DNA from: Clytia hemisphaerica
Lineage: Eukaryota
Length of the DNA: 64,000 nt
Direction: 5' to 3'
Assembly: GCF_902728285.1 (NCBI RefSeq)
Contig: NW_027103772.1
Location: 249,149-313,148 of the forward strand
The notes under the pieces were generated by a model. It was not told the origin of the DNA, searched no databases, and saw only the letters and a list, made by a program, of their open reading frames with translations. The position numbers were made by a program, and so were the translations under genes. Below are positions 20,998 to 57,863 of the stretch, in pieces (positions within the stretch are counted from its first letter, which is position 1; the number at the start of each line of letters is the position of its first letter).

Positions 20998-22600
20998 GTA
21001 AGTAATTGAGTATAATGGACTATAGTTTTCTACCGAATAATAGGCTAATTCCAGAAAAAATTAGAACTCCCTATGTCGAGGAGGTCTTCTTCAGGTCTTC
21101 AAAATTTTTAGGACGCTCTTGGATTTTTTAAATTTTTTTGGACCTCTCTGTATTTTCAGCCTTGTTTTACTGACCCCTGGGTTTTTTAATTTCCAGACCA
21201 CCCTGAACGTAATTATATCTCCTTGACATACGGGATATAGACTGGCACGCCAGTCGGGCTGGAACGGTATCACGCGGGAAAAGTGAGCGTAGGAGTTAGG
21301 TAAGCGTAGGAAGAAATTTTGTCGGCGGCAAGGGCTGAAAGCCCGACTGGAGCGAAACCCCAGGAAGGAAAAAACGGCTAAGCTGAAGCCCCAATCTTAC
21401 AACGCCAGATTTCGGCGTTGTAGAAATGAATGAACTTTGAGAAATTCGTGAAATGAGAAATGAAAACTTCCGTCAAAGTCGCAGATCGTGTTGTTTTGAT
21501 TTTTGAGGAGTGAGTGATTGGAAGAAAAATGGCTGACTTCTAGTGGAAATTTTTATTTGAATAGATGTTTTGTTTCTTGTTTCTTATTTGATGAGTCTCT
21601 TCTTTGTGTATATATATGTGGCTTTTCTTCATGGTTCTCTGCATATGCAAAATTCGTTGAATCATTTTTGGTTGTCTTTTGTTTTGATTTGAGAGGCAAG
21701 AGAAGATGGAAAATCTTGTAACATCAGTTATCAGAACTTGTTGATTTGTTATCTTTTCCTATTCATAACTCATTCAATTTTAGGAATGGAGTATTCAGAT
21801 CGCAAACACTATGGACTGTGAGTTTTTTTTTCATTTCAGCTTTCTTTTTCCTAGATTTACATGTGGTAATCAAAGGGATAACCCAGGTACAGTACCCTTC
21901 GTACCCTAACAATTATTTACTGACATTCAAACATAAGACTTTTTAATTTTCCAGGACTCACAAGTCAAAGGTTCTTTATCAAAAATATATGGATGTTGCA
22001 CTACCAGAGACTACTACACGACACTGACACAATGTCGTACGTATTGGAAGTGCAACAAAACGTGCAACAAACTTTTGTGAATATCTACCTGGTTATCCCT
22101 TTGTTATCCCTATGATAAAATTATAGTTTTGAGCAGAAATAAAGTTATGGTAAAGCAGCACTGACAAACAACAAATTTCTCCAAAAAACATTTTCTTTCA
22201 AATAATGAAATATTAAAAGTCTTCTTACAAGATTTGAAAATGATTAAATTTTTTCACCATGCTTATGTTTTACTCAATTCTAGTAATTTTTCCAAAACTT
22301 ATAACTTGCATAGAGGGAAATTTAGCAGAATTTATGGAGAAAATTAAGAATTCTCAGTTTGGCAACAAACATTTTCAAATGTACTGTACTATCACTTAAA
22401 ACATTATTAAATTGCCAGATTAGTGTGGCAAGAAAACTCTAAAAAAATTTAGCCATAAATCTTCAAGTGTGAAGTTAATTTTATTTCCATAGCTCACTTG
22501 TTCAACAAATTCTTGTCAAATTGGATGTCGAACAAGTGGGTTGTTGAACAAATGAGTACCAAAATGATCGACAACCCAGTTGATTGACAATCCACTTGTT

Positions 22601-22680
22601 CGACCAACTATATAGTTGTTCGACCAACTATATAGTTGTTCGATAACCTATATAGTTGTTCGACAACCTATATAGTTGTT
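22601..22680. repeat. 20-bp minisatellite (CGACCAACTATATAGTTGTT)x4 inside transposon copy A (1 unit in copy B)
   Basis: Direct tandem units. The homologous region in copy B (~54400-54480) has a single unit. Confidence 0.8.
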
Positions 22681-23440
22681 CGACAGACCAGTTGTTTGAG
22701 AAAAGAGTGTCAAACAAGTGGTTGTCGAGCAAATGGATGTCGAAATAATAACTGTCGAACAAGTGGGACTTCCCCAAAATTATAGTTGTACGTAGATGAA
22801 AATTTGTCAAAATTTATATTACGGTGAAAATTCTCAGTTTGATAACAAAAGTTTCTCGAATAGGTAACTTTAATTTACATAATTATAATATTAAATTGTA
22901 ACATTAGTGGGACAAGAAAACTCTTTAAAAAAAATAGCCATAAATCTTGGTAGTGTAAAGAAAAGTGACAAGAAAATTCTTCAGCACATAGCCACAATCT
23001 ATAGAAAAATGTCAGAATTTACATAATTCTTTTCTCACGAAAAAAATACTACATTTTTCTAAAGTTATGAATATATATATATATAAATTATGGATTTTCC
23101 ATCAGAGCTATCTTATCACAGCACTAAATTCTGCAAATTTCAATTTTTAACAAATTAAATTTGTGCATGTCGATGTTACATTTTTCCTGACAGACTGAAA
23201 AACTTAATTATTTCAACATGACATCTAAAACTAGCAAAAGGTCTATCTATTTAATTTTCTATGCGTATATACGTGTAATTTTCCAGTGCTTGGCTGGTAC
23301 GTTACATGCTGACAGTCAGGACAGGTTGTTTTTTGTAGCAGTGAGTCTGTTGAAGAGGGTTGGGCTGTCAGACAGCAGCCAGCCTGGGAGTGATGACATT
23401 GAGAGTTTCTTTAAACTAACCAGGAAACGCTGTTTATTCT

Positions 23441-23560
23441 CACGATAACCTAAAAATGGTTTTCAAACCGTACCAAAAACTTTTGTCAACTCAATATTAT
23501 GTTGACTAAAATTTTTGGTACGGCTTGAAAACCTGATTTAGGTTATCGTGAGATATTAAA
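23441..23560. repeat. perfect ~120-bp palindrome (nested hairpin MITE) inside transposon copy A; counterpart in copy B at ~53603-53722
   Basis: ctcacgataacctaaaaatggttttcaaaccgtaccaaaaacttttgtcaac..gttgactaaaatttttggtacggcttgaaaacctgatttaggttatcgtgag. Confidence 0.8.
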
Positions 23561-24867
23561 AGTGTCAGAATTATTGATTATTATGATATGTTATTTTATT
23601 CTAAAAATAGTGTCAAAATTTTTCCAAAATGGTTATATTGCTGGGTACTTTTGAGAAGAGTTCCTGCCTGGTTAGTGTTACTGTTGTATTCATTGTGTTG
23701 GAGAGGTTCACTTAGCCACAATGAGACTAGACTGCTAGAGTAATCAAGTTCCTTAACAAGTAGTCTGTAAGTACTAAAATAAAAAAGCAAAAAGTATTTA
23801 GGTGGAACCAAAATAGAAAAAATATTTCTTACCTTGAATGAAAGAGGCTAGCAAAAAGCCACCAACCTGGATAGGGAAAACTGAATAATCCTTGTACACT
23901 TTTGATGATTGTAGAAAACTGAAGCTAAATTGCAAATACTTACCTTTCTAAGAATGTATGAAAAAACAACTAAGATGTAAAAGTTTCAAAACTTGAAAAG
24001 TGGCTCATCCTTTTACCACCCAAAATTCAAAACAAAGTGGTCTGTCGGCTTTTCTCCCTCCAAAATTTAGGAAAGCACTCCCCCGTTCTCAAAACCTCCA
24101 AAATGAAGCCGTGGCAGAATGTTCTAGTCTGTAAATCAGCAGCCTCTCACCAACTTTTGCTCGCTCTCCTACGCAGCTCCTATTCTAGCAAACGCCCGCC
24201 GCCTTTATGTTCCCGCCCTCTGACATGATTAATTTACAGACTAGTTTGCTAGTCTATACGGGATATAGAATTTTTCTGGAATAACCCAATATTTTTGATT
24301 GAATCTTAAATGTTCCTTGGAATGTTCTCAAAACCCTTTTAGTTTCATATAGATAGAATTCATAGATTTTGATTCCTTCACATTTATTTTTACCAGGGGT
24401 CGATAAATTTTCAACCTTAAAAATTCTTTGAGTTCGTGATGGACGCAGCCTTTCTATAATTAATCCACGCAAAAATTAATACACTCTTCTCGAGATGCAT
24501 CGATTTATTGTTGTCCTCGTTTTCAAACAGATTTCACTGCTATAAAATTACATATTCACGATGATAATTGTGTTGTTTACACCTCATGAGACATTTTGAA
24601 TTTTAAGTACTTTTGTTTTAGAGTTAATGTTTGCCTTTTGGGAATTTAAGTTGGTTTAAATGTATAATTTGATAGCAATGAAATCTGTTTGAAAACGAGG
24701 ACAACAATAAATTTATGCATCTCGAGAAGAGTGTATTCACTTAAAGGTATTTACGATACCTTTGCAGGCAATTTCCTACTAGAGTCTTAGGTGAGACGAA
24801 TGTATTTTTTAAATAAAGCTCTAAGTTGAAAGCTATCATTCAAAACATTGTCTATTGATTGTTTCAG

Positions 24868-26376: not shown

Positions 26377-26721
26377 TCACTCATCCGACATTTCAGAAGT
26401 AAAGCTCGACCTGCGTTTGCGGGCTACAGCTGACGTGCTAATCAATCCTTCGGCCGTATTGAACAGATTGATGGGTGATTTTCCATCTGTAATCAAGGTT
26501 GATTGCAAGCCTAATGATTTCAATAATTTGACCTGCATCTCTGGTCCTGCAGTGGCGATCGATTGGATCGTGTTTGGCCCAATAGCGTCAACCATATGCT
26601 TGAATTTTGCAGACTCGATGTGAGCAAGTTCTTGAGTCTTGTTAATCTCTAACTCATTCTGGTCCTTAATATATTTTGTTTCTGCGTCACGAGCGGCAGT
26701 CAAGCGTTTCAATTCGGAAGC
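26377..26721 (-). CDS. MVP: MVP terminal exon ([14 protein letters not shown]...[48 protein letters not shown]...SEMSDE*)
   Basis: Acceptor tattttccag. Aligns to human [55 protein letters not shown] stop at 26377-26379. Confidence 0.9.
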
Positions 26722-27239
26722 CTGGAAAATAAGGATGGGAATTTATATACACCAATTAAGAAATACAAATCATTTTCATAATTTTCAAGTTGTTGCTCTC
26801 AATATCTAACTACGCTAAAGTCCTGGCAACAAAAAATCATTCAGTTTCAACAAAAAATGACGAGACAGAAGACAATCAAAATATTTAATTGTCTAAACCT
26901 TATCTATGATAAAATCTCGAATTCAGAACTAGTGGCAAGTTTTAAACAATAGAACTAGTATAAACACCCGATGTTTTGATTTTTTCCGTATGAAAAGATC
27001 TTGAATATCACGAATAAAGGGTAGTGTGTAAGACTGAAACAATTTGAGCAGAAAAGTGGAAGAAAATAGAAAAACAGCTTCTGGTCGTTTCTATGGAAAA
27101 TCCTTTTAATGAAAAAATCCTTTATTCCAGCTATGATAACCAAATGACACTGAAGGGTAAGCGACCTTGCATATGAATGAAAGCCGTATCAAAAAGCTGT
27201 TTTCCCATCTCTTAACAATCCTTTGAGCAAAATACGTAC

Positions 27240-27483
27240 AGCTTCGATATTGGAGGCTTCCGCTTTCAGTTGCGCTTGTTGTACAGCAGCTTCGCCCTCA
27301 ATGCGCGCGGCTTCGGCGCGGGATTGTGCTTCCGCTTTAGCTTGACCAGTTGATTCAACAGCGGCACTTTCAGCTTGGAGTTGCAACAATTCTCGTCTAG
27401 CTTTTTCAGATGCGGCTTCATCTTGAATCTTTTGTCTTTCCAAACGACCACGTGCTTCTTGTTCCAATCTGTCAGCCTCATGT
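27240..27483 (-). CDS. MVP: MVP exon 10 ([82 protein letters not shown])
   Basis: Acceptor ttcacag and donor gtacgt. Coiled-coil cap-helix region nearly identical to human ([52 protein letters not shown]). Confidence 0.9.
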
Positions 27484-27624
27484 CTGTGAAGAGAAAAGAA
27501 AGAAATTGTCAAATTAAGACTCAACGCTTCTGCTCATCCTCTAGCAAAAATGTTTCTTATATAAAAAGAAGTCTGCGATTCAGACTAACCGACATTATGT
27601 TTGACCTTTTTTCAGTGACGGAGT

Positions 27625-27885
27625 CGATTAGTACTCTCGGGTACCTAATAGCCGGGGGGGTTGGAATAAGCGGGGGGGGGGGGGGGGGGGGGGGTTGGAA
27701 AAAATCTCAAAACTTAATAAGCGGGGGGGGGGGGGGGTTGGAATAAAAATGTCCTGGGTGGATAATTTATGTAAAAGAGGCTAATACAGCATAATTATGA
27801 CAAAAAAGGGAAATTTCAAAAACATTTTCCCAAAAATTAATAAGGGGGGGGGGGGACGGCTATTAAGTACCCGAGAGTATTTGAT
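27625..27885. mobile_element. MITE with TIR AGTACTCTCGGGTACCTAATAGCCGGGGG and internal (G)n/'aataagcgggggg' motifs
   Basis: Inverted termini at 27625-27660 and 27850-27885. Lies in the MVP intron between exons 9 and 10. Confidence 0.65.
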
Positions 27886-28798
27886 TTTTCTGAATCCTGG
27901 CTGACCAGAGGAATGTAAAGAGATGGAAAAACAGTTTCTTGAAAACAATGGAAAAACGGCTCGCCATATACCATATATTGATGTCGAGTTAATAGGGTTC
28001 TTTTGTTGTCGCTATAAAAAATCTGCATAATTCTTTTGTTTCAAGCCTAATTATGCGCAAACTTTTAGGGCTTATATTTTGGGTACACCTCTCCTATACG
28101 AAAAAGTACCTATATCTTCTTGCTCAGAATTTCCTAGCGATTCTACTGATATAACCGCATCATGACCGCACCATTATATGGAGGACCATAGCTCGAGAAG
28201 ATTCTAACTTCGTCTTGATTTTACTCGAGTTTTGGCAGTTTTACAAGAAACAATTTAATATCATTGCGTTAAGAATTTCTTTTGCTATACATTAGTAAAT
28301 AAATTGCTCCTTATTCTTAAAAATTGAACTAGTAATCGGCGAAATCTAAATTTTCATTTTTATCGTCAAATCATGTAGAAACAGTCCGATTTGTATGGCG
28401 AGCCGTCTTTTCTGGACTTTCATTTAATGACCTAATCAACGTTTTTACAATAGAATTGTCAATAGAAGTGATCGTTGAACATTGAGTTATCAGTAAAGCT
28501 GTGTTTCTATCTTTTTACATTCCTCTGGGCTGACTGAAGACGATAGTAAATCAGTACTTTTACCGTTCTCGATTTTACAGGTCAAAACTGTGGAGTTATT
28601 CCTAATCGCTTCCCGATATCCGTAAAGACGCCATTGCAGTGTTGAAAATTAACCTCTGACGGCGCTATATCATCAAAAGTATTCGAGGGAACGCAGATCT
28701 CCGATCAAAGATTTTGGTATATAAATATAGTTTATATAAAGGTCCGTGATCGGGATACACAAACGGAAAGAAAGAACAAAAAGAAGAAATTTTCTTAC

Positions 28799-29143
28799 TT
28801 TGCAGATGCTTCTTGTGAGGCTGTCGTAATCTCAATAGCCAATTGAACAGATTTCTGCAAAGCATCTCGGGTACGTTGATCCACAGGCTCGACAGACTGA
28901 ATATCCACACTGGTAATGTTTAACCCGTTAGCTGGGAAAGTAAATTTCTCACGCACTTTATTTTTCTCGTCTAATCCAAAAACGGATGCGCGGATGATTT
29001 TAGCGGAATTCTTGTGGAAATCGTCGAATTTTACGGAAGCGACAGCACCACGGATACGGGACGCGATTGCTTTGCATGCATCTCCGATGAAATCGGGAAC
29101 GGAGAATAATCGAGCACCGTCTTTTGCTTCGTGTGCGAAATGC
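28799..29143 (-). CDS. MVP: MVP exon 9 ([52 protein letters not shown]...[37 protein letters not shown])
   Basis: Acceptor tttaacag and donor gtaaga. Very high identity to human ([40 protein letters not shown]...[30 protein letters not shown]). Confidence 0.9.
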
Positions 29144-29930
29144 CTGTTAAATAACGGTGAAAAATAATTTACATACAGTTGACTCCCTGTAATTCGATCT
29201 TCATGGGACCAAAAATTCTTCTAATCAGAGAACAATTCGAATTATAGAGAGTAATTTCATCTACTTTCTAGCTGAGTTGACCCAAATATATTAGTTCGAA
29301 TAACAGAAAGGTCCGAATAATAGAAGTTCGAAATAGAGTGAGTTTACTGTATCTGTTCAGTGCCGAAAGAAGCAGTTTGATACAAGGGGATGTTTAAAGT
29401 TATTTTTTTGTTATGATATCGAAAGGAGGCGCGTCTGTATGCTGACAAGGCAAAATAATACAAAAGAATTTCTCAAAATTTGTGCTTGCAAGGCACCGAA
29501 AGGGAAGAAAGTTGTTTTTTATTTTGTTTAAAGATGCTGTGTCAGCAAATTGTAGGAGATACGGCAAACGATGTTCTCTTAGTTGCGACGCTTATACTTT
29601 AAGCTCTTATTAGTTGTAGAAACCCTACATTTGTACGTCAATTTCTTTTAGCAAAATTACAATTTATATAAAGGAGAACTCGGGGGTTTTATTCAGGCCC
29701 AGTGTACGGCGGACGGCGAATTTCGACGGTCCAAGGAATGAAGAGAATTACAATTTGTCGGTTCGCCTCTTACAGTTTATATCCACGCTGATATTGATTG
29801 GGCTTGCCAAGAATTCGCTGGACTAGAATCTAAAATTCCCCGAAGTTTATTTTTCATTCGTCAGCTTTTCAAATACAAAATGAAACCCCTGAAAACTAAA
29901 ACAAAGAAAAGAAGAGAAATAATCCCTCAC

Positions 29931-30128
29931 CAGTTGTATGACAGTTGAAGTGACAATCGGGCGTGGTCAGCCGTCTCCACGACAACGATATCAGTACAAA
30001 AGTCTGGGCCGAGTAATAGACATAAGGCCTTGATTACATTTGGTCGTTTTGGTTTTCCACCAGAAATGCTCAAGACGGTGAATTGTTCGTCGGGTAAAAG
30101 CATGACAAGGTCAGGTCCAAAGTTGACT
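29931..30128 (-). CDS. MVP: MVP exon 8 ([66 protein letters not shown])
   Basis: Acceptor tcttcttgcag and donor gtgagg. Aligns to human [66 protein letters not shown]. Confidence 0.9.
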
Positions 30129-30552
30129 CTGCAAGAAGAAATTCAAAGCACATAAGCTAATGTACAATACGAAAATTTGCTCAAGTTAGGGAGATTTGAG
30201 TTACGGAGTAAAGGTTTAAGAGGAATTGTTAACTGTTTGAATGAGCCATAAAACTTGTTCGAATTAAGGAGACACTCGAGTTACAGAGGTTCGAGTTAAA
30301 GAGACGCCAATGTAGTAAGCTTTGAAAAGGCCGTTTTTTTCGGGAAAGGGAAATATTTAGTAAAAATATTTCAACTACATTTCGAAAAACGGCTTCAAGA
30401 TTTTTAAGCTTAGGGGAACTTTTCAAGAAATTGGCAATGTTGGCGAGTTTGAAAAAATACCATGTCAGCTCAAATAATCACTATTTAAGAGCTGCTTCTT
30501 CGTGCCTGTGTATAATAGGAGTATTTTTTTTAGCAATGGGGATTTCATTTAC

Positions 30553-30691
30553 CTGGCTTTCTTGTCTTTGTAATCATAGATTTGCACTGCAGCATTGTGG
30601 GGCACGCGGAAAACAACCACTTTCGTTTTGTCTCTTGCCTTGCTTGCTCCCTTGGATCCACGCTCACTTCGGTCAGCGAGTGGGTCTTTAC
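30553..30691 (-). CDS. MVP: MVP exon 7 ([46 protein letters not shown])
   Basis: Acceptor ttcttatag and donor gtaaat. Aligns to human GQDPLADRGEKDTAKS...[23 protein letters not shown]. Confidence 0.85.
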
Positions 30692-31405
30692 CTATAAGAA
30701 AAAATGATAAAACATTATCAATAAATTACGTAGTTTGCACATTATGAGGGGGTCTATGTAACGAATCCTGCATTACTAAAAATAGACAAAAAGAACGACA
30801 AATTTCACCGTCCACAACCACCCCTGCGGATTTATTCCTTTGTTTATCACGGGAATTAACTACATATGGTTTAAAAGAACGACAAATTACGCATGCGTGT
30901 TACAATGCAGGATTCTTTAGAGGAACAGACTGTTATACAAAGCGAAAGCGGTTAGCGATCTATCATCGTTAACTAAAGATATAATGAAAATGTAGAAGAA
31001 TAGATCCTGATAATCTCTAATTTCAAAAGTATAGTTTTTGAGTTGACTAGAGTCTATTTGTGACTGAACTTTGCTTTTTGATATTGTTTACCAATTTAGC
31101 ACGAGCCAATTCATGATATTCATGACGTAATTTTTTCTACGATAATACCACGGTTTAAGCTAGTAGTGTCAACTTTAAACTAGACAAAAGTTGTATAAAA
31201 TTTGCCACTACAGGCAAAAACCAGGGTCTTTCCGTAGAAAACACTACGTCATGAATATCATGAATTGGTGTACTTTTAAGTGTCATTCAATCAAAATCTC
31301 AAGTGAAATCGAGGCTAGTTTTAAAGAAACATGAATTTAGAAGATTAAAATTTAGAGATAAAGATAAGTATGGAAAGATAAATATGGAAAAAGTTTTCTC
31401 CATAC

Positions 31406-31583
31406 CTTGCGCCAACAAGTCTTCGACGACAGGTGGCAATTCTTTGGCCCACAGTTCTTCATCCTGATCTAACATGTAGGTTTGACCAACCACAGCACGC
31501 ACTTGACCGGTCTTGATGTTTCGAACGTAAACACCTTCGTTTGCATCCAGTGGAATTGCTTTACGATGACTGGTCACTTCGAC
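31406..31583 (-). CDS. MVP: MVP exon 6 ([59 protein letters not shown])
   Basis: Acceptor ttatccag and donor gtatgg. Aligns to human [57 protein letters not shown]. Ends are +/-1 nt. Confidence 0.85.
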
Positions 31584-32207
31584 CTGGATAAAACAGATGA
31601 GATGGAGTTTTTATAAGATACTTTAATAATTGGTCATTTGAAATAATAAGAATGACGCGTTCTTTAGAAAAAGTAACAAAATTGTTTTATTACTGGTTAA
31701 CAAGATGGAGTTTTTACCAGCTCTTATTTGATTTGGTTGGTAAGAGCTTGTAAAAACTCCATCTCGTTCCGGTTTTTTTAAGACTTTTCCAGGACTTCCA
31801 AGAGGCCCTGCTGTGTTGGGATGGATGAAGGCACCGTTCTGCTTTGTTCTCGAACCGGTGCAAGTATGATCATGGAAACAAACTTAACGTGGCTTAATTT
31901 TGTCACCTTCATTGAAAAATTCATTCAATTGTGTCTCTCTAGACAATTAAACATACATGTTCCTTTTATAAGAACGTTCAAACATTTGGAAGCCTTCGAG
32001 TGTTCTTTGTTTTTTGTTTTCTAAGCTTTAAAATGTTCTTGAAATGTTCTTGTTTTCATCATTTTGAGAGTATTTTTTTTAAATATCTTCGTAAAAAATC
32101 GGGTCTACAAAGCCTGAAAATGTTCTTAACTTGTTCTTAATATTTGGGCCATCGAAGCCTTATGTTCTTATATAGTTTGTTCTTATAAAAACATGTGAAT
32201 GACAAAC

Positions 32208-45696: not shown

Positions 45697-45742
45697 CTAT
45701 GGAGAAAAGAGAATTTATTTGATTGGTTTTAAGGCAAGTTTA

Positions 45743-45816: not shown

Positions 45817-45991
45817 CTCAGCGAATGAGTAGCTTAGATTGGGTAATCTGATCTAGGCGGTAAGTTACTCTAAGTTGAGAGTAAGTATGGCGCTTCACAA
45901 CACATTTGATTTCCCAGGTTTAGATAGAAAATAGGAAGCGTGATAGAATCCCTCACTAGCACATGGGAAACGGGGAGAATAACTTACTCAC

Positions 45992-47081: not shown

Positions 47082-47227
47082 CTAAAAGAATAAATTGAAA
47101 ATGCTGAAATACATGCTTTTTTTATAAGAATAATTTTATAAGTAAACGAGGCTGAAACTTCACCAAAACTTAAGAAAAAACTAAGAACATCGTGAGAACA
47201 CTTAAAATCTGAAAGAACTAGAAACAT

Positions 47228-47712
47228 CCCAGAATGCATAGTGTCCTCCCCCCCTTTATAAAGGGGGGAAACCAATTTTCCAATTTTGAATGACTGAGGG
47301 GGGACAGTGAAAATTTGAATAGTAAAGGGGGGGAAAAAAAAGAGGGGGGAAAACATCAGTAGTTGGCAAATTTGGTGGGGGGAAGTGTGAAATCACTTCA
47401 ATTTTATCTCAGCAACCAAGGTCAGTCCACATGATATCATGTGATTAGATCATGATTGAAAAATTAACCAATTTTCGTTCTATTTTGTCTAGTATTCCTT
47501 TTGCAGCAAAATTTTACGTTTGTGTCAGGTTGAAATTTGAGAAATTTATACGGGTATATGGGGGATCTGATATTTTCAGAATTTTCTGGGGGGAAAGCAA
47601 AAAAGAGGGGGGAAACTAAAAAACTGAAAAGTCACAGGGGGAAAAAAAAGAGGGGGGAGATTTAAAAAAATCAAGAATTTAGTGGGGGGAACAAACCCTG
47701 GAGGACACTATG
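47228..47712. mobile_element. MITE with TIR CATAGTGTCCTCCCCCC and multiple G-runs
   Basis: gcatagtgtcctccccccc at 47228 pairs with ggaggacactatg at 47700. Lies in an AGL intron. Confidence 0.55.
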
Positions 47713-48310
47713 ATGAGCCAAAATTCACTCGTTCTTAAAAAAAAGGCAGAAGTACGAAAAAGGACTGTCCTACAGTCTAGAACTTTGTCACATCCACCTT
47801 GAGGGAGGAAAATTTGGTTGATTGTAAGGTACTGGCTAATGGCAGTTCAAATATGGCCATATAATTTTGATATACGATGAGCACATTACATCACTTTCTT
47901 TTTTTATTGTACTTTTGAAATTTACGCCATTTTCTACCATTCTTATCTTCCAGTGTCACAGAAAAAATTGTTAAAAGTGTCTAGGAGCCCAAAACAAAAG
48001 TTTTATCTTCTAATCCAAATTTTCAGACTTTAAGACTTTAAGATTTTAGACTTTTTTTTGTGAGGAGACCTATTAAAGTTGTTGATCAAAAACCCGAGTT
48101 CCGAGTTTTGGTCATCGAGTTTATAAGAAAGAAATTTTTTCAGATTTTAAGGCTGATAAGGGAATCAATACAACCTGGTAAACTCTAGCTTAGTCTCCTC
48201 ACGATTTAAGGTTCAGTAAGTGTTTTGATTTTCATCTTGAAAAAAAGTTTAGGCATGTGTAGTGTGTTACGATGACTTCAAAATAACTGGGCACCAAAAA
48301 TGCCTTAATG

Positions 48311-48356
48311 AACTCGAAACTCGAAACTCGAAACTCGAAACTCGAAACTCGAAACT
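48311..48356. repeat. heptamer tandem repeat (AACTCGA)x6
   Basis: aactcgaaactcgaaactcgaaactcgaaactcgaaactc. Confidence 0.9.
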
Positions 48357-48831
48357 CCAACCCAGTCCATGCAACTTTTAGCAAAGGAGTTACACGTTTT
48401 TTTATAAGGAACCTTAACTTGGCTCCAAGCCTATGAAGTTCCTTATTTTTCCAGAGAATTTCAGCCTCCATGTTCCTTGTTTACTTAGCTGCTAAGATTG
48501 GATTTGCCAAGTATGTAACTTATGTAAAAAGTATAACAATGGGCTACAATACAGAAAAAGACGTTTATCAAGTGTTGTTTCGCCAATATTTTGTCAACTT
48601 TTTGTTTAAAATTTTGCAAAAGTTTAAGTTTAACTGTCTGTTCCTTACAAATTCTTTTATTTTTTTAAAAACGTGTAATTGTTATCTTCAATGACAATGA
48701 TCTCAGTAATCTTTCAATTAACTATGATTGCAAAATAACTGGGCACCAAGAAACGCCCCTGTGAATTCGAACCTAGTCCCCCTATCCGTACAACTTTTTG
48801 AAACAATAGGTTAGGGTAATTGATATCTCAC

Positions 48832-49099
48832 CTTGACAACAAGCTCAGTGATCTTTCAATACACAAAGAGTGTACACCTCTCACAATGACTTCAAAATAA
48901 CTGGGCACCAAAAAACGTGGTAATACGCTCATATGATCAAATATGTTTTCAAACCACAGTCCCAAAGGCTTCGTTCCTTCATGATGTTTCAGACGGTTCG
49001 CCGTATAGCCGAGTAGCCAGTCACCTTCTCTTAAGTTGGAGCATATCGGATGTCCGAGATCATTATCTTCAGCCACTTTAGATAATACGGACATGATAC
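48832..49099 (-). CDS. AGL: AGL exon (GIMSVLSKVAEDNDLGHPICSNLREGDWLLGYTANRLKHHEGTKPLGLWFENIFDHMSVLPRFLVPSYFEVIVRGVHSLCIERSLSLLS)
   Basis: Acceptor ttatttaag and donor gtgaga. Aligns to human [36 protein letters not shown]...[31 protein letters not shown]. Confidence 0.85.
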
Positions 49100-49162
49100 C
49101 TTAAATAAAAGTACACACTTGTTAAATGATCGATATTTCATTACAGCAGAAGACTCAATTAA

Positions 49163-49475
49163 GCTATGACCATTGAGTTTAAAGCCCGAAGGGCTAGAGT
49201 AGAATCTCTAACCTTTCCCAGGCAAGAAAAAATGAACCCACTTATTTCCCATCCAGAACGCGCCCAGTAAGCGCCGTAATCATGACAACGGATTGTATCT
49301 AGCGGTTCCTTTGTTTTTGAGGACTGCGTTTTTTGAAATCTAGCGATAGATTTTACTTTCAATCAGGCGCTTGCAAAAAAAACACTCGCGGGCGTTCTGG
49401 ATGGGAAATAAGAAGAAATGTCCCATCCAGGAGTCTCGAGTCCAGTCCTTCGGGCTTGGAAGTCAATGGCTATGA
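49163..49475. mobile_element. MITE with 'aagcccgaagggctag' TIR motif
   Basis: tatgaccattgagtttaaagcccgaagggctag / inverted ctagccattgacttccaagcccgaagg. Lies in an AGL intron. Confidence 0.5.
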
Positions 49476-49689
49476 TCTAATAAGCCTCAGAAAAAATTAA
49501 AAAAATTAAAAAAAATTTCAGATCAGAACGTGAAATTTTCCGTTTAAAAACTTTTTCACCAACATTGAATAGTTCTACCATTAGGGTAACACTTTCAAAA
49601 AAACTCTGGTCAAAGATTTTTTTTGGCCAGGAGCTAGAAGTATAGTCCAGGGTATATAATCTATCATTGGCTTCAGCACATTCTTATAC

Positions 49690-49898
49690 CATAGATTTAT
49701 AAAGCCCAAAGGGCTAGATGTCGTGCTGTGGCTGAAAACTGTGCCTAGGTCACGTGACATTACAATAGAATTTCAGCGCTTGACCAATAAGAAGCTTCGC
49801 GGGTTTTCGAAAACAATAGCAGCAATATTCTTTGCGATATAAACTTTTTTTTGCTTGGAAGAGCTTAAAGCACGACATCTAACCCTTCGAGCTTTACA
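49690..49898. mobile_element. related MITE (TIR CATAGATTTATAAAGCCCAAAGGGCTAGATGTCGTGCT) ending 7-8 bp from an AGL splice donor
   Basis: Left TIR at 49690-49728. Its inverted partner ends at 49898. The exon 49907-50149 donor GTATAAGA directly abuts the TIR. Confidence 0.55.
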
Positions 49899-49906
49899 GA
49901 AATCTG

Positions 49907-50149
49907 TGTCTTATACCTTGCAGTCCACAATAGACTATATCACCATGTCCTGGAATATTATACACTCCTCCACCGAATCCATCATCACCCTCCTCCTGTG
50001 AGCTTCTATACAATACTTTGTTTAAATCTACTAAAGAGAGCTTGCTCACAATTTCTTTAACATCCGTGATGGAGTTTTTTCCTTCTCCACCATCAATGAG
50101 GAGTTTTGAGTTAGAGTCCTGGAAATCAGGGAGTGTGTTGATGGTAGCT
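49907..50149 (-). CDS. AGL: AGL exon (RATINTLPDFQDSNSKLLIDGGEGKNSITDVKEIVSKLSLVDLNKVLYRSSQEEGDDGFGGGVYNIPGHGDIVYCGLQ)
   Basis: Acceptor ttttcacag and donor gtataag. Aligns to human ..[44 protein letters not shown]. Confidence 0.75.
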
Positions 50150-50204
50150 CTGTGAAAATAAAAAAAGATGAATCGAAATAAGCTTGAGTTTATCGACCCT
50201 GTGA

Positions 50205-51605
50205 TATTAATATTGGAAGTTTATCGTGGCTTGGACCACGAGATTTACGTTTGGGTATGTTTCGAGAGATTCTTCCCCCATTATCGGAAAATGTGGAGGA
50301 TATTCGAGAGATACATGTTTTTTTTGTTTTTTTAAGAAACACACTTTTAAGAAACACGAGGCTCAGAATGCCAAAAAATTAAGAAACATCTAAGAAAGAT
50401 GCTGAGGCTGAGAATGAGAAAATAACACTTTTTTATTCTGTTTTTTAAGAACCTTCCAATCAAGGCAAAGTTCCAGAAAAATCTGGAAAAATACTTACAT
50501 AACAGTTAGAAACACTTGAGAAAGTCAGAAAATCAATATAGAAGATAGGAAAGTACCGTAGATTAGTCTATAGACTAATGTATTATCGACATGCGTCCTT
50601 TAAGCTTGACAAAGTTTAGAAACATGTAAGAAACATTTAAGGATCAAAAGGCCGATTTCTTAAGAAACATTGAGGCTGCTTGGTAAAACTAGTTTCTTAA
50701 AAAACAAACGTGCAATTTACCTTACACATATGGTACCCCATGTTACTGCACCCAGGGGGGGGGGTCAGTGTACTAGAAAGCGGCATGTATGTGTACTACA
50801 AGGTATTTTTCAAAACTTGACACCCACCCACCCCTGAAGTACACCATACTACATGGAAAAGTCCCAAAACCACCCCATTCCCCCCATTTACTACCGGGCA
50901 CTACCTAGAAAAATCCGGGAAATAAAGAAACTCTTTTCCGAAAATCGGAAAATCGGGTAAACACTTTTCCGAAAATCGGGAAATCGGGAAAACTTTTTTT
51001 CGGAAAATCAGGGAATCGGGAAATCGGGAAAACTTTTTTCCAAAAATCGGAAAAACAGGAAAATTGTTCTCAAAAATCCAAAATGCGTGAGAAATCAAAC
51101 TTTTCAAAAATTAAGCGATACCATGTGGAAATGCACGAGTCTCACACCCAATGCGTGAGAGTTGGCACCAATGTTGAATGTTTGAATTCAAATGTTCGAA
51201 TGTTTACATTGACTCGATAAACCTTCATTTCAGTGGGATCTAGTAGTAGAATTTTTGTTTCCACACTTTTAACATCGATTTTGGACCCAACACCCCTATT
51301 TTGGTACACAGGTAGTAAAAATCAAATTCGATTTTGGACCCAACACCCCAATTATAGTACACAGGTAGTACATGACAAATTTTTTTCTCAAACACCCACC
51401 CACCCCAGGATACATGCCACCTTCTGGTACACTGACCCCCTGCTGCACCTTGTAAGGAAATAATACTTGATAATTGGGTAATCAGAAGGTCTTAGTACAA
51501 ATAGTTTAGAAAACATCCTCCTTGCCCGATGATGGGGGAAGAATCTCTCGAAACGTACCAAACGTAAAGCTCGTGGTCCAAGCCACGATAGACTTCCAAT
51601 ATAAG
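50205..51605. mobile_element. TIR element (~100-bp TIRs) containing a nested poly-G-TIR MITE (approx 50735-51460) and 'gaaaatcgggaaatcggg' tandem repeats
   Basis: 50205-50310 is the reverse complement of 51500-51605. Inner pair cacccaggggggggggtcagtgtac / gtacactgaccccctgctgcacc. Lies in an AGL intron. Confidence 0.6.
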
Positions 51606-51933
51606 AAAAGATGACATGGATTTAAGCTTAATTCAATTATATGAATAGTCTATCTAAAAGTGATAATCGCCCGGCCCAATGTCCAGATGTCTCAAGACCG
51701 TAGTCACTTGCATTTTTTGAACAAAGCTCTTGAAGGGGGTACCGAAATATATATTTTTAGACCCCCTTATCGAAAGATCGGCAATTGAAAACCCAAAGAT
51801 GGCGCCCCTCATCACTTCAAATACTCAAAATTCTGCTGGCTGGTTCACCTTGAGGTGTGGATTCGAATAAGGAGTTTCTGATAAGTGGCCTTGGCACAAA
51901 TACTAGGTCATTTGTTTAGAATCTTAAAAATAC

Positions 51934-52043
51934 CTGAGACAGTTGATAGAATCACGGGCGGACAACTTTCCGGATACTTTGAAAATAACAACGGAACCAG
52001 GGAAGAAATTGCGGAACAGTATTTCACTTCCACGATCGGTCTT
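51934..52043 (-). CDS. AGL: AGL exon (KTDRGSEILFRNFFPGSVVIFKVSGKLSARDSINCL)
   Basis: Acceptor cacttcag and donor gtattt. Aligns to human [43 protein letters not shown]. The reading frame differs from the listed ORF 51908-52177. Confidence 0.75.
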
Positions 52044-52574
52044 CTGAAGTGTACATAACTAAAAAAAGCATTGATAATTACAATACACAGGTGTATTTCT
52101 GATTGGTTCGAATTTATTAATAATAATAATATTATTAAATTTGAGTTGTAAACCAAGTAACATGGGAATGAATTCACGTGAACTTTTTCGAGTAATCACA
52201 TGTTTCGACTGCACTGCTATAATTTTGCAACCCGTGTAATAGTAACTCTGAAAGCACCAAAAGAACTGGGTGGAAAATGAAACCGATTATTTCTTATCGA
52301 AAATTCTTAAGACTTTACTTTCTTTTAACTGGAAAAGATTGTCGAACTAGAGGAGAAGTTTAAAAATAGCTATAAGCTTCAGAAAAAGTTGTAGGTTGCA
52401 CACCCAGTAGCGTGCCGGGTCGATCAAAACTCGGGCAAACTGGGGAGGATTTATGCCCTTTTAAATAAAGTGGTCAGGAGTTATAGTCTTAAGTCTAGGA
52501 GTCGGTATTTTGGCAAATTAAAATCGTGTATACACGGTATGCCGAGTTTGAAGGGTTACTGTAAGAGTACTTAC

Positions 52575-52717
52575 GTTAGATGAATTCAATTGAATATTTT
52601 TCTGTGAATAAACAACAACATTTTCGTTTCCATTGATAAAGTCTTTGTGTCTGACAAATTCTTTGATAGTCTCCTTCTCCAAGATTTGTCCTTCGAATAA
52701 AATCTCTTCAAGATGCC
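52575..52717 (-). CDS. AGL: AGL exon (GHLEEILFEGQILEKETIKEFVRHKDFINGNENVVVYSQKNIQLNSSN)
   Basis: Acceptor cacggccag and donor gtaagt. Aligns to human [46 protein letters not shown]. Confidence 0.7.
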
Positions 52718-52903
52718 CTGGCCGTGGAAAAGATAGAGAAAAAAGCGTTATTTTCATGCTTGATACACATTATATCACTAATATCAGTCTGTTCCTCTAA
52801 AGAATCCTGCATTGTAACACGCATGCGTAATTTGTCGTTCTTTTAACCATATGTAGTTAATTCCTGTCATAAACAAAGAGGGATGAATTCGTAGGGGTGG
52901 ACG

Positions 52904-55900
52904 TAGACTAGCAAACTAGTCTGTTAATTAATCATGTCAGAGGGCGGGAACAAAAAGGCGGCGGGCGTTTGCTAGAATAGGAGCTGCGTAGGAGAGCGAG
53001 CAAAAGTTGGTGAGAGGCTGCTGATTAACAGACTAGAACATTCTGCCACGGCTTCATTTTGGAAGTTGTGAGAACGGAGGAGTGCTTTCCTAAATTTTGG
53101 AGGGAGAAAAGCCGACAGACCACTTTGTTTTGAATTTTGGGTGGTAAAAGGATGAGCCACTTTTCAAGTTTTGAAACTTTTACATCTTAGTTGTTTTTGT
53201 TATTCATACATTCTTAGAAGGTAAGTATTTGCAATTTAGCTTCAGTTTTCTACAATCATCAAAAGTGTACAAGGATTATTCCGTTTTCCCTATGCAGGTT
53301 GGTGGCTTTTTGCTAGCCTCTTTCATTCAAGGTAAGAAATATTTTTTCTATTTTGGCTCCACCTACGACTGCACCTTACTTTTGCTTTTTTATTTTAGTA
53401 CTTACAGACTACTTGTTAAGGAACTTGATTACTCTAGTCTCATTTTAGCTAAGTGAACCCCTCCAACACCCTTTTTTATGAATACAACAGTAGCACTAAC
53501 CAGGTAGGAACTCTGCTCAAAAGTACCCAGCAATATAACCTTTTTGGAAAGATTTTGACATTATTTTTAGAATAATAACATCATAATAATCAATAAATCT
53601 GACACTTTTAATATCTCACGATAACCTAAAACAGGTTTTCAAGCCGTACCAAAAATTTTAGTCAACATAATATGTAGTTGACTAAAGTTTTTGGTAAACG
53701 GTTTGAAAACCATTTTTAGGTTATCGTGAGAGTAAACAGCATTTCCTGGTTAGTTTAAAGAAACTCCAAAGATTCTCCCTCTCATCACTCTCAATGTCAT
53801 TACTGCCAGGCTGCTGTCTGACAGGCCGACCCTCTTCAACAGACTCACTGCTACAAAAAACAACCTGTCCTGACTGTCAGCATGTAGCGTACCAGCCAAG
53901 CACAGGAAAATTACACGTACGCGTAGAAAATTAAATAGATAGACCTTTTGCTAGTTAAGATGTCATGTAATTTGTGAAAAATTGAAATTTGCAGAATTTA
54001 GTGCTGTGATAAGATAGCTCTGATAGAAAATCCAGAATTTATATGGTGACAGAAAAGTTTTTGGGCACAAGTATTCATAATTTTAGAAAAATGCAGTATT
54101 TTTATCGTGAGAAGAGAATTATTGTAAATTCTGACATTTTTCTATAGATTGTGGCTATGTGCTGAAGAATTCTCGTCACACCAAAAAAACTGAAAAATTA
54201 ACCTTACACTTTAAGATTTATGGCTAATTTTTTTAAGAGTTTTCTTGCCACACTGATCTTACAATCTAATATTATAATTATGTAAATTAAAGTTTTCACC
54301 GTAATATAAATTCTGACAAATTTTCATCTACATACAACTATAATTTTTGGGGAAATCCCACTTGTTCGACAGTTATTAGTTCGACACCCATTTGCTCGAC
54401 AACCACTTGTTCGACACTCTTTTCTCAAACAACTGGTCTGTCGAACAACTATATAGATTGTCGAACAAGTGGATTGTCAATCAACTGGGTTGTCGATCAT
54501 TTTGGCACCCATTTGTTCCACAACCCACTTGTTCGACATCCAATTTGACAAGAATTTGTTGAACAAGTGAGCTGTGGAAAAAATGGGTTGTTGAACATGT
54601 GACATATATATCACCCATTTTTCTGTAAATTGTAAGTATCTGTGTACTATAATGTATATAATTAACTTCACACTTGAAGATTTATGGCTAAATTTTCTTG
54701 CCACACTAATCTGGCAATTCAAAAATATGTAAATGTTTTAAGTGATAGTACTACAGTACATTTGAGAAATTTTTGTTGCCAAACTTAGGAGAATAATTAA
54801 TTTTCTCCATAAATTCTGCGAAATCTCCCTCTACGTAGGTATAAGTTTTGGAAACATTACTAGAATTGAGTAAAACATAAGCTTTGTGAAAAAATTTAAT
54901 CATTTTTAAATGTTGTACAGTTGTAAGAAGACTTTAAATATTTCATTATTTGAAAGAAAATGTTTTTTGGAGAAATTTAATTGTCAGTGCTGCTTTATTT
55001 CTACTCAAAACTGTGTAATTTTATCATAGGGATAGATACGGTACGTATTCAACTCAAAACAAAGGGTTAACCAGGTAGATATTCACAAAAGTTTATTGCA
55101 CTTCCAATACGTACGACATGGTGTCAGTGTCGTGTAGTAGTCTCTGGTAGTCCAACAACCATATATTTTTGATAAAGAACCCTTGACTTGTGAGTCCTGG
55201 AAAATTAAAAAGTCTTATGTTTGAATGTCAGTAAATAATTCAATAATTGTTAGGGTATTGTACCTGGGTTATCCCTTTGATTACTACATGTAAACCTAGG
55301 AAAAAGAAAGCTGAAATGAAAAAAAAACTCACAGTCCATAGTGTTTGCAATCTGAATACTCCATTCCTAAAATTGAATGAGTTATGAATAGGAAAAGATA
55401 ACAAGTCAACAAGTTCTGATAACTGATGTTACAAGGACAAGATTTTCCATCTTCTCTTACCTCTCAAATCAAAACAAAAAAACAACTAAAAATAAGCCAA
55501 AGAATTTTGCATGAACCAGAGAACCATGAAGAAAAGCCACATATACACAAAGAAGAGACTCATCAAACAAGAAACAAAACATCTTTTCAAATAAAGATTT
55601 CCACTAGAAGTCAGCCATTTTTCTTCCGATCACTCACTCCTCAAAAATCAAAACAACACGATCTGCGACTTTAACGGAAGTTTTCATTTCTCATTTCACG
55701 AATTTCTCAAAGTTCATTCATTTCTACAACGCCGAAATCTGGCGTTGTAAGATTGGGGCTTCAGCTTAGCCGTTTTTTCCTTCCTGGGGTTTCGCTCCAG
55801 TCGGGCTTTCAGCCCTTGCCGCCGACAAAATTTCTTCCTACGCTTACCTAACTCCTACGCTCACTTTTCCCGCGTGATACCGTACCAGCCCGACTGGCGT

Positions 55901-55909
55901 GCCAGTCTA
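52904..55909 (-). mobile_element. same ~3.0-kb TIR DNA transposon, copy B, inverted relative to copy A, with 9-bp TSD CGTCCACCC
   Basis: The reverse complement of 52904-55909 is collinear with 21238-24256 at roughly 95% identity by eye. GGGTGGACG occurs at 52895-52903 and 55910-55918. Lies in an AGL intron. Confidence 0.75.
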
Positions 55910-57863
55910 GGGTGGACGGTGGAATTTGTCATTCTTTTTGTCTATTCTTTTTTTCTAACCGGGTCGGGGTTGTGGGCGTTGAAATTTTGTCGTTTTTTTA
56001 TGAAATTTTTCGTTCTTTTTGTCTATTTTTATTAGATGTAGGATTCTTTATATAAACCCCCTCTGTAGTTAGTTTACCTGTCTATATATGGGACCAATTC
56101 AAAAAACACCCTTCTTGAAGATTTTTACAAAAGCATTGCGGAAATCGTTTTCGAAGTGTTGTTGTCAAGATACTTATCAAAATTGATAACGGTCTCTTTG
56201 TAAAACATACTAAACTAGCCGTCCCGGCGTCGTCCGAGACGACTTCTTACCCCTTTTAATACGCTCGCTTCGCTCGCTTTTCTATTTTTCAGAAACTTGT
56301 AGGGATTTGTATACAAATGTACTTATTTTGTGAGAAGAAATGTTCTTAAATTTAGGCCTTTTTCATAAAAATTGATGTTTAAAATTTTTAAGGGGACACT
56401 AAAATTAATGCACATTAAAAAATATGGTGAAAGTATTTTTAGTTGAATTTTGATTTTTCTTCTCCTTATTAAATTGTATAAATTTGTCATAATTTCTTTT
56501 GTTGAAAACCTTCAAACAATAATGTTCTTGACTCGCTAAAAATAATGCTCATGCAAATATTGGTGAAAATTGAGTTAAAAATTTCTCGCGAGAAATCGGT
56601 CATACTTTAAACGTGCTTTTTTTGGGGTTTTTGGGAGAGGAAAGACTATTATTTTCCTCACGCAAGGATGAAGATAAAAAACAAATAGAAATTCAAATTC
56701 AGTATTAGAGGTACTTGGCAACACCGATCACTCCAAAGACCACAGTGCTTTACGGTGGAATATAAAGAGTGCCTTTTTTCAATACCTCTTAACAGAGTCA
56801 ACAATTATTTAACAATTAAACTCAATGCGTAAGTAAAAGCGTTTTCATTTTGCTATCTCAATAGAACAAAAAATAGCAAACATTGATTAAAATTTCATAA
56901 TTGAATTGGGAATAAGTCATCAACTTTTCTCATATTGTCAAGTCCATTAAATTGAAATGTTTTTATCAGAGTATCAAATAGAAGGGAAATGTCATCGGAG
57001 CTTTATTAATCTCAAGGGTAATCATAAATATGATGTCTTTTTGAAAACTCAAATTTTATCTTCGACGTATTCCCATGTGAATCAAAATTATTTCATAACC
57101 GACATAAACTTTTTTTTAAAAAACTATAAATTATGCTGATAGTGCTATTGCACAGTCAGTTGTGTTTCTCCATCAAGGAGAAATGTGCTCTCTTGAATGG
57201 AAGTGCACTTGGCGAATAGAATTGAATATACAATCAAAAAGGCGCGAAAAAAATTGCCGTGTATTTAAAAATCGCTAGCGAAAAAGCCTCATGCGAGAAT
57301 GGGAGAGTTCCGACTTAAGCGTATTATAATATAGATGTGTAAAAGTCGTTTGAAGATATTATTAACGAGACCCCAATAATTTGATGTTAAATCTGGAGAA
57401 GATTTTGTTTCCAGTTTATGGACTGTACTGTACGAAAGACAAGTTTCAAATGCTATAAACTCGAGTCCAATCGTCTTTCGTGTAACTTTTAGAGCAAAAA
57501 GCTTAACAGTTATATCAAAATCCTTGTGCAATCATTGCTGAGTCCATATAAACATATAACGGGAAATATTATTTGTTTCTTAACCTGTCCCTAGGAATGG
57601 GGATTAACTTTCTCGAGAAAATCGGCTGCTCCGACGATTAATAAAAAGTTCCAGACTCAAAAATTTGTTTCAGTGAAAATTGAAAATCGGGCTTGCCACA
57701 TTTTGGCCATTGCAATATTGCACATTTTTTCAAAATAATCAGAAAAAAACTAAATGAGCCAATTCCGAGAAAAGCTGTTAGTTCGGTTTGTTTGTTAGGC
57801 GGATTAACAAACGAACAAACGAACGAACGAACGTTCGAATGCAAAAACATAAAAAAAATTCAC

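Follow-up and report, generated by a model that had tools for sequence, protein, structure and literature searches.

The window, a 64-kb stretch of Clytia hemisphaerica DNA whose positions are used throughout, contains the MVP gene and exons of AGL, the gene for the glycogen debranching enzyme. The homologues found for the MVP reading frames are MVP proteins with Vault domains, with best identities of 65-68% (67% in Patella vulgata). Two copies of one element, copy A on the plus strand and copy B on the minus strand, enclose MVP and part of AGL (Table 1). The first-pass annotation of this DNA had placed the whole of MVP and the 3' third of AGL between the copies; the statement on MVP was borne out, whereas for AGL the enclosed portion amounts to roughly the 3' half instead. 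The insertion site of copy B lies in an AGL intron and within another dispersed repeat.

Table 1. Features of the locus, in order of position within the window
Feature	Position	Strand	Basis or remark
Left TSD (target-site duplication) of copy A, TACGGGATA	21229..21237	.	read directly; identical to 24257-24265
Copy A, non-autonomous transposon, 3019 bp	21238..24256	+	collinear with reverse complement of copy B; exact homology limits
5' end: TIR (terminal inverted repeat) TAGACTGGCA overlapping terminal palindrome GACTGG-cacg-CCAGTC (21240-21255)	21238..21255	+	sequence and folding
Cluster of TGTCGAACAA/TTGTTCGACA palindromic motifs, minisatellite included	22485..22760	+	
Minisatellite, 20-bp unit x4.5	22596..22685	+	60 bp (3 units) shorter in copy B
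Near-palindrome, 116 nt, 58-nt arms 86% complementary	23438..23553	+	counterpart in copy B 53607-53731
3' end: palindrome AGACTAG-tttg-CTAGTCT and TIR (reverse complement TAGACTAGCA, 24247-24256)	24238..24256	+	
Right TSD of copy A, TACGGGATA	24257..24265	.	read directly
MVP coding region, wholly between A and B	26377..35847	-	reading frames encoding both termini of MVP; Vault_2 match
Paralogous "empty site" for copy B, uninterrupted copy of target repeat	~30778..30936	+	flank alignment
AGL 3' half (rest of hGDE_central and GDE_C exons), between A and B	42636..52757	-	Pfam GDE_C, hGDE_central; ORFs
AGL exon flanking copy B, hGDE_central positions 213-247	48831-49094	-	Pfam
TSD of copy B, element's 3' side, GGGTGGACG (= CGTCCACCC)	52895..52903	.	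identical to 55910-55918
Copy B, same transposon, 3006 bp, in the opposite orientation to A	52904..55909	-	alignment and flank BLAST
TSD of copy B, element's 5' side, GGGTGGACG	55910..55918	.	read directly
AGL exon flanking copy B, hGDE_central positions 29-64	57781-58020	-	Pfam

Two insertions of one element

When copy A and reverse-complemented copy B were aligned with MAFFT, 2654 columns matched, 135 were mismatched and 447 held gaps, the gaps forming 39 indels; identity is 95.2% over the aligned columns and 82% with gaps counted. The copies are collinear from end to end, as expected from their earlier description as one ~3.0-kb element. When 2 kb of flanking sequence was included in a BLAST comparison, the homology started and stopped exactly at 21238/24256 and 55909/52904, and no similarity was detected between the flanks of A and those of B. 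The coordinates and terminal sequences reported before were exact, and the spacing of 28.6 kb was computed as 28,647 bp. No further copies or fragments of the element were found elsewhere in the 64-kb window; it has no match among the window's repeats, in agreement with the claim that it is unlike the other repeat families there.

At each copy the TSDs are identical in 9/9 positions, perfect on both sides as had been stated, and the 9-mer differs between A and B; the TSD length is based on these two insertions only. For copy B, a paralogous site without the element is also present in the window. The flanks of B, joined after removal of the element and one TSD, matched this uninterrupted copy of the target repeat in one 162-bp HSP (E 1e-51) that spans the junction at 88% identity and has a 6-bp indel where the element is inserted; the target region itself is CGTCCACAACCACCC, at 30809-30823.

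Inverted blocks of 3 kb with 95% identity could also be produced by segmental duplication, one block being derived from the other by rearrangement. This origin is effectively refuted by the TSDs, the exact ends, the paralogous empty site and derivatives outside the window: a different perfect 9-bp direct repeat lies at each block's own ends, the homology stops to the base at termini bearing the TIRs, the two flanks of copy B adjoin each other in the paralog, and short derivatives in unrelated surroundings carry these ends too. The data support A and B as products of separate insertion events of a single non-autonomous TIR DNA transposon, and the earlier preference for insertion over inverted duplication holds on the strength of the separate TSDs, the sharp ends and the empty site for B. 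If this reading is true, a site lacking A is expected as CTCCTTGACA-TACGGGATA-TAGAATTT and a site lacking B as ATTCCACCGTCCACCCCTACGAA, each with a single 9-mer.

The non-autonomous nature of the element, already proposed, was confirmed, since neither A nor B contains a transposase ORF or Pfam match. The longest ORF has 76 aa and is not conserved between the copies. Six-frame searches for Pfam domains yielded none in the element, apart from a lone meaningless match at E = 0.36. No exact-product match was obtained for the element's 63-aa ORF, and no protein-search match for a 365-aa chimera of six of its ORFs. No tRNA was found in the element, and no Rfam family reached threshold, with sub-threshold miRNA-like matches on the palindromes only. 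The internal minisatellite noted at first was confirmed. The adjacent description of a perfect hairpin was too strong; the near-palindrome has arms that are complementary to the extent given in Table 1, and its fold is very stable (dG -43.7, z -16.7). The 2.7-kb AT-rich interior may be passenger or filler sequence.

Terminal structure and further family members

The TIR of the element comprises 10 bp and is imperfect, with 9/10 positions matching between TAGACTGGCA and TAGACTAGCA. The pattern TAGACTRGCA occurs 4 times in the window, all at the four element ends, where 0.14 occurrences are expected by chance; none of 100 shuffles reached 4. No significant extension of the TIR past 10 bp was detected in the remaining 150 nt (score 18, shuffles 14.9 +/- 5.2). 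The ends are of the pyrimidine/purine type, 5'-T...A-3', in A, B and one outside derivative (L002, below).

Each TIR is associated with a terminal palindrome. The 3' palindrome is well supported by folding (dG -5.1, z -5.0, 0/200 shuffles); the 5' one, with dG -4.9 kcal/mol and z -1.2, is not significant alone. Relative to the 5' TIR, the 3' TIR has a G-to-A change at position 7, which is compensated by a C-to-T change in the partner arm. This compensated difference (5' GACTGG/CCAGTC, 3' GACTAG/CTAGTC) is present in every complete copy seen. The ends also diverge less than the rest of the element: the difference between A and B is 1.7% at the ends and 5.8% in the interior (11 mismatches in 654 terminal nt against 124 in 2135 interior nt; Fisher p = 3e-6), which was counted as selection on the ends. 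All large indels between the copies are interior.

A 22-nt probe from the 5' end matched three JGI environmental contigs (L001, L002 and L003), in which the first 48-105 nt of the element are 97-100% identical. Two of these contigs carry short derivatives, of 242 bp in L002 and ~232 bp in L003, in which ~103 bp from the 5' end are joined to ~125 bp from the 3' end, at a deletion junction that differs between the two; L001 holds one further 5' end. The element is a real multi-copy family, because the same ends are found on two ~240-bp derivatives and one further terminus. Such shorter, MITE-like members may arise through internal deletion at short microhomologies.

No TSDs were found around the L002 and L003 derivatives. 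In L003, two unrelated intron-less animal ORFs are joined across the repeat, so that both transcript-like contigs are probably chimeras joined at the repeat, which would probably account for the missing TSDs. Their absence was counted neither for nor against. The first-pass annotation also described the element as recently active; its status as a transposon stands, and recent activity is supported to a moderate degree only.

Superfamily assignment

The two copies are best read, with a probability of about 0.6, as independent cut-and-paste insertions of one non-autonomous class II family, provisionally assigned to AcademH, a lineage within the Academ superfamily; the assignment rests on the length of the TSD and on some 9-10 nucleotides at the element tips. 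In animals, AcademH elements have TSDs of 9 or 10 bp, nearly every Academ family has a pyrimidine at its 5' terminus and a purine at its 3' terminus, and some AcademH families have TIRs shorter than 10 bp; their hosts include molluscs, cnidarians, annelids and other phyla (Kojima 2020, Mob DNA 11:15, PMC7165386). The present element has a 9-bp TSD (two insertions), a 5' pyrimidine and a 3' purine. AcademH is favored because of the 9-10-bp TSDs, the pyrimidine...purine ends, the short TIRs and the matching published termini.

Among the published families, AcademH-13_CVi of Crassostrea virginica is the only autonomous comparator. It starts with tagactggcttcc, and its terminus TAGACTGGC matches the present element in 9/9 positions. 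The Repbase rule for non-autonomous DNA transposons considers TSD length and terminal positions 1-11 with at most one mismatch (PMC4455052); over these positions, agreement with AcademH-13_CVi is 9/11, one below the 10/11 of that rule. Academ-N1_ADi of Acropora digitifera (TAGACTGGGAC...CCAGTCTA) agrees in 10/11, its TSD length and sub-lineage being absent from the source. AcademH-N14_ADi from the same coral (TAGACTCGG...GCAGTCTA, TSDs 8-10 bp) agrees in 8/11, and its first and last 6 nt equal the ends seen here (TAGACT...AGTCTA). Non-autonomous AcademH families cover a similar size range, from 241 bp in AcademH-N2_CVi to 3271 bp in AcademH-N10_ADi, like the ~240 bp to ~3 kb of the present family. 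A short inverted motif GACT...AGTC inside the first ~18 nt is a further likeness; ends that differ at TIR position 7 with compensating palindromes are a difference, and PMC7165386 contains no such description.

Past the terminal 9 nt, no similarity to AcademH-13_CVi was detected in the whole window by blastn and tblastx with a query re-typed from the paper's PDF (5879/5915 nt, with OCR errors). Internal 11-14-mers of the element ends were absent from the Kojima data set, and the terminal sequences had no match in a full-text search of a paper collection. A 12-nt match, tagactggcacg, was noted in a fungal element; its position, ~550 nt away from the end of the fungal element, makes chance the best explanation.

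Neither an autonomous partner nor a transposase was found in the 64-kb window. The DDE transposase would come from an autonomous AcademH element at another place in the genome and would bind the conserved element ends. Excision would be followed by integration via cuts staggered by 9 bp, and gap repair after these cuts would leave the 9-bp duplications. Autonomous AcademH elements also encode an SF2 helicase.

The first-pass annotation had suggested a Mutator-like or Merlin-like superfamily. This assignment was not upheld, since the terminal GG and the TIRs of Merlin and the long TIRs of canonical Mutator are lacking, and AcademH fits better. A non-autonomous MULE (including the Rehavkus, Phantom and Foldback types), moved by a MURA-type transposase that makes 9-bp duplications, is an unlikely origin. 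MULE TSDs range from 9 to 11 bp, some MULEs have very short TIRs or none, and unrelated internal sequence is often carried, all of which count for such an origin; MULE ends typically start with G (GAG/GGG), which counts against it, as the present element starts with TA. A TIR of 10 bp, against the canonical 100-200+ bp, lowers the MULE reading and goes no further, since non-TIR MULEs exist. Terminal matches were found to Academ families and to no MULE. The 9-bp TSD and the occurrence of non-autonomous members with unrelated interiors are common to MULEs and the present family; a 9-bp TSD in both copies is the classic Mutator signature, and maize Mu has 9-bp TSDs together with TIRs of ~215 bp (PMC2774946).

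Membership in some other superfamily with 8-9-bp TSDs (Merlin, or a divergent P element such as the MITE BuT5), or in an undescribed one, is unlikely. The literature search, in which the element had no match, is in its favor; the specificity of the matches to Academ termini counts against it. For P elements, no terminal similarity was shown, and their ends start with CA. The hAT superfamily, defined by an 8-bp TSD and terminal YARNG, was rejected; both copies have a 9-bp TSD, and position 5 of the end TAGAC is C, not G. Merlin and IS1595-like elements have the 8-9-bp TSD in common with the family (8 or 9 bp in Merlin), but all Merlin families start with 5'-GG and have TIRs of 24-462 bp (PMC8101967); a terminal GG and a TIR of at least 24 bp are both absent here, where the element starts with TA and has a TIR of 10 bp. 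BuT5, of the Drosophila repleta group, is a non-coding P-superfamily MITE of ~1 kb with 3-bp TIRs and 8-9-bp TSDs that was long unclassifiable (Rius et al. 2013, PMC3698922). It resembles the present element in its lack of coding sequence, very short TIRs, conserved ends, unrelated interior and TSD length, and differs in its ends and superfamily.

The family is ordinary genome content and leaves the current understanding of transposons unchallenged. Its probable home, AcademH, was characterized only in 2020 and is rarely recognized, and standard libraries may miss the family. For annotation, a clean end consensus (5' ~105 bp and 3' ~125 bp) with a 9-bp TSD is now available.

The interval between the copies

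The first-pass annotation regarded the two copies as a substrate for inversion by non-allelic homologous recombination (NAHR), and as a candidate substrate the pair is mechanistically valid. BuT5 copies in opposite orientation are proven inversion substrates via ectopic recombination, for which exchanged TSDs are diagnostic (PMC3698922). In the present case, unlike those inversions, A and B each keep their own matched pair of TSDs; therefore, no inversion mediated by A and B has taken place in this haplotype. Such an inversion, if it occurs, would flip MVP and split AGL between its hGDE_central exons, and the resulting allele would be null for the glycogen debranching enzyme. Inverted alleles would be expected to be missing, or else rare and confined to heterozygotes.

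In a more extended reading, the family would be an active, undescribed AcademH-type lineage with hairpin- or helicase-assisted recognition of its ends, and A and B might segregate in the population as a 28.6-kb inversion, with MVP flipped and AGL knocked out. This combination is quite improbable. If it were true, the conserved terminal hairpins at both non-identical ends would suggest that hairpins or a helicase assist in recognizing the ends, a mode to our knowledge undescribed for Academ elements. The 28.6-kb interval between 3-kb inverted repeats is relevant to structural-variant genotyping in this species.

Boundaries and insertion history of the two copies

The four ends of transposon copies A and B placed in the first-pass annotation were read base for base and proved exact, and each copy carries its own perfect 9-bp target-site duplication (TSD), as had been claimed. 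A global alignment of copy A with the reverse complement of copy B shows collinearity over the full length of the element, with 2654 matches, 135 mismatches and 447 gap columns in 39 indels. Identity is 95.2% in aligned columns, in keeping with the earlier estimate of roughly 95%, and 82% when gaps are counted. BLAST of the two loci, each extended by 2 kb of flanking sequence, placed the limits of similarity exactly at the element ends and detected no similarity between the flanks. The terminal inverted repeat (TIR) is 10 bp with one mismatch, and no extension past 10 bp was found. In the 64 kb, TAGACTRGCA occurs at four sites (0.14 expected by chance), only at the four element ends, and no further fragments of the element were found elsewhere in the window.

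Copies A and B are two separate integration events, as first proposed; the different perfect 9-mers around each copy are expected from such a history. Copy B sits within another dispersed repeat, of which an uninterrupted paralog is located at approximately 30778-30936 in an MVP intron. With the element and one 9-mer removed, the flanks of B give one 162-bp match to this paralog that spans the junction (88% identity, E = 1e-51); at the target itself the two differ by a 6-bp indel alone. Production of the pair by inverted segmental duplication is excluded for practical purposes, because the 9-mers are distinct and the paralog is continuous over the B junction. The intact copy of the dispersed repeat spans 30746-30936 and the split copy 52781-52903 plus 55910-56063; in the right flank of B its AATAGACAAAAAGAACGA motif is partly repeated in tandem.

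Coordinates of the transposon copies and neighbouring gene features
Feature	Position	Strand	Remarks
Copy A	21238-24256	+	starts TAGACTGGCACG..., finishes ...TTTGCTAGTCTA
Copy A TSDs	21229-21237 and 24257-24265		TACGGGATA, read at both sides
Copy B	52904-55909	-	orientation opposite to copy A
Copy B TSDs	52895-52903 and 55910-55918		GGGTGGACG at both sides (reverse complement CGTCCACCC)
Near-palindrome, 116 nt	23438-23553		arms 58 nt, 86% complementary
MVP CDS	26377-35847	-	wholly between copies A and B
AGL exon, upstream side of B	57781-58020	-	hGDE_central positions 29-64
AGL exon past B	52521-52757	-	
AGL exon past B	48831-49094	-	hGDE_central positions 213-247

Element structure and family members

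The element has no protein-coding ability. Its longest ORF (76 aa) is broken in the other copy, six-frame translations matched no Pfam family, and neither a tRNA nor an Rfam family at threshold was found in it. G+C content is 0.46-0.49 over the ~250 nt at the 5' end and the ~250-300 nt at the 3' end, against about 0.3 elsewhere. The interior holds a ~115-bp direct repeat (78% identity) and a cluster of TGTCGAACAA-type palindromic motifs, among them the minisatellite mentioned earlier, whose unit is 20 bp (4.5 units in copy A, three fewer in copy B). The internal hairpin, previously described as perfect, is a near-palindrome that is very stable despite its imperfect arms.

Both ends also contain palindromes: GACTGG-cacg-CCAGTC at the 5' end (21238-21255) and, read inward, GACTAG-caaa-CTAGTC at the 3' end (24238-24256). 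At TIR position 7, the lone mismatch, one end has G and the other A; in each end's own 6-7-bp palindrome the opposite arm carries the compensating base, and A, B and the environmental contig L002 agree in this. In hairpin statistics, the 5' end alone is not unusual (z = -1.2); the 3' end is unusual (z = -5.0). Additional GACTRG/CYAGTC motifs lie in the terminal regions at positions 108 and 2887 of copy A. The terminal palindromes with their compensated mismatch are noted here as a structural feature, and any function of theirs would be putative.

In the terminal 330 columns per end, 11 of 654 aligned positions differ (1.7%), against 124 of 2135 (5.8%) in the interior (Fisher p = 3e-6), and every large indel is interior. 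Conserved ends with a divergent interior are not what uniform neutral decay following insertion would produce. The pattern fits descent of the copies from already-diverged source elements, with ends kept by selection for transposase recognition; part of the difference may also come from a higher mutation rate in the interior, which is AT-rich and repetitive.

When public metagenome contigs were scanned with the first 22 nt of the element, three JGI contigs (L001, L002 and L003) were matched. In L001 the 5' end adjoins a beta-glucuronidase-like ORF. In the elements of L002 (242 bp) and L003 (~232 bp), the 5' ~103 bp is fused directly to the 3' ~125 bp, with 94-99% identity to A and B over these parts. 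The two were deleted at different points, each marked by a short microhomology (GAAAGC/GAAGC and CTGAAA/CTGTAAA); such deletion is the usual route from a longer element to a MITE. Copies A and B are thus a genuine, well-delimited pair of insertions from a real multi-member family, of an already well-known kind. The family was not found in the literature searched, including the Kojima data set, and its end consensus will be useful for annotation.

No TSD is visible around the elements in L002 and L003. Because the animal ORFs are intron-less and L003 joins two unrelated ones across the repeat, these contigs are probably transcript assemblies chimeric at the repeat, which would account for the missing TSDs. 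The same ORFs indicate that the host or a close relative was expressed in JGI samples Ga0314674 and Ga0314683. Intron-less animal proteins lie at L003 65-805, L003 1521-2183 and L001 337-984; a peroxiredoxin-4-like protein with signal peptide, a DxDGD-repeat protein and a beta-glucuronidase C-terminus are encoded there. Family members in these contigs are in or adjoin transcribed regions.

Superfamily assignment

The termini and TSDs suggest, with a probability of about 0.6, that the family belongs to AcademH, a lineage of the Academ superfamily. Animal AcademH elements have TSDs of 9 or 10 bp (Kojima 2020, PMC7165386). In nearly every Academ family the 5' terminal base is a pyrimidine and the 3' terminal base a purine, and TIRs of less than 10 bp occur in some; AcademH hosts include molluscs, cnidarians, annelids, brachiopods and other marine phyla (PMC7165386). 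The autonomous, 5.9-kb AcademH-13_CVi of the eastern oyster starts tagactggcttcc (supplement of PMC7165386); its first 9 nt are identical to those of the element, and its 3' end is the complement save one apparent OCR error in the source text. AcademH-N14_ADi (TAGACTCGGAGCAGTC...GCAGTCTA; TSDs of 8-10 bp; PMC7165386) has at its published end a GACT...AGTC arrangement similar to the terminal palindromes described here. The Repbase rule for non-autonomous DNA transposons combines equal TSD length with at most one mismatch over positions 1-11 (PMC4455052). Under it the element is borderline, matching the classified autonomous AcademH-13_CVi at 9/11 terminal positions and Academ-N1_ADi of Acropora (TAGACTGGGAC...CCAGTCTA), whose TSD length is not given (PMC7165386), at 10/11. 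Past the tip, no similarity to AcademH-13_CVi or the Kojima data set was found.

AcademH fits better than the Mutator-like or Merlin-like superfamilies guessed in the first-pass annotation, and offers a classification lead in their place. Mutator has the 9-bp TSD in common with the element, but its ends typically start with G. Canonical Mutator members carry long TIRs, about 215 bp in maize (PMC2774946), against 10 bp here, and a short-TIR MULE is quite improbable. Merlin, also proposed from the 9-bp TSD, is contradicted: in all its described families the ends start with GG and TIR length is 24-462 bp (PMC8101967). Membership of another or an undescribed superfamily is considered unlikely.

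If the family is AcademH, a transposase acting in trans (a DDE enzyme with its companion SF2 helicase) would recognise the ~100-bp terminal regions, excise the element and integrate it where the target strands are cut 9 bp apart; gap repair would then leave the 9-bp duplications.

Genomic context and inversion of the interval

AGL (glycogen debranching enzyme) is encoded on the minus strand, and copy B lies inside one of its introns. What remains of the central domain, together with every GDE_C exon, therefore falls between the copies and amounts to about half of AGL rather than the third estimated initially. The copies form 3-kb inverted repeats 28,647 bp apart (28.6 kb in the earlier account), so that in principle ectopic recombination between them could flip the DNA that they enclose. 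In Drosophila the BuT5 MITE has given rise to such inversions, which are recognised by exchanged TSDs (PMC3698922). In contrast, no TSD exchange between A and B was observed in this haplotype; each copy retains its own matched pair, indicating that no A/B inversion has occurred in it. An inversion would split the halves of AGL and create a null allele; thus, a common inversion polymorphism is unlikely, which is a checkable prediction.

Several other repeats occur in the window. A 32-nt AGL exon piece (...FLVPSYFEVIV) is repeated ~600 bp downstream in the intron, the two stretches being 48268-48300 and 48882-48913 (31/32 identical), and the repeat could be a pseudo-exon or alternative exon fragment. 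A MITE-like element of 260 bp (24478-24737; 79-bp inverted arms, 92% identical) lies 220 bp right of copy A. In an MVP intron, a 629-bp foldback-like element (32473-33101; 226-bp arms, 96.5% identical) has ends, TACCGGGTGCAGCAG...CTGCTGCACCCGGTA, that resemble those published for AcademH-N11_ADi (TACCTCGGGTGCCAGAG); no 9-bp TSD is evident around it, and TA stands on both sides if the ends are CCGGG...CCCGG. An interspersed repeat family of ~230 bp is present in three copies, 75-79% identical, at 19910-20138, 31954-32191 and 39293-39529.
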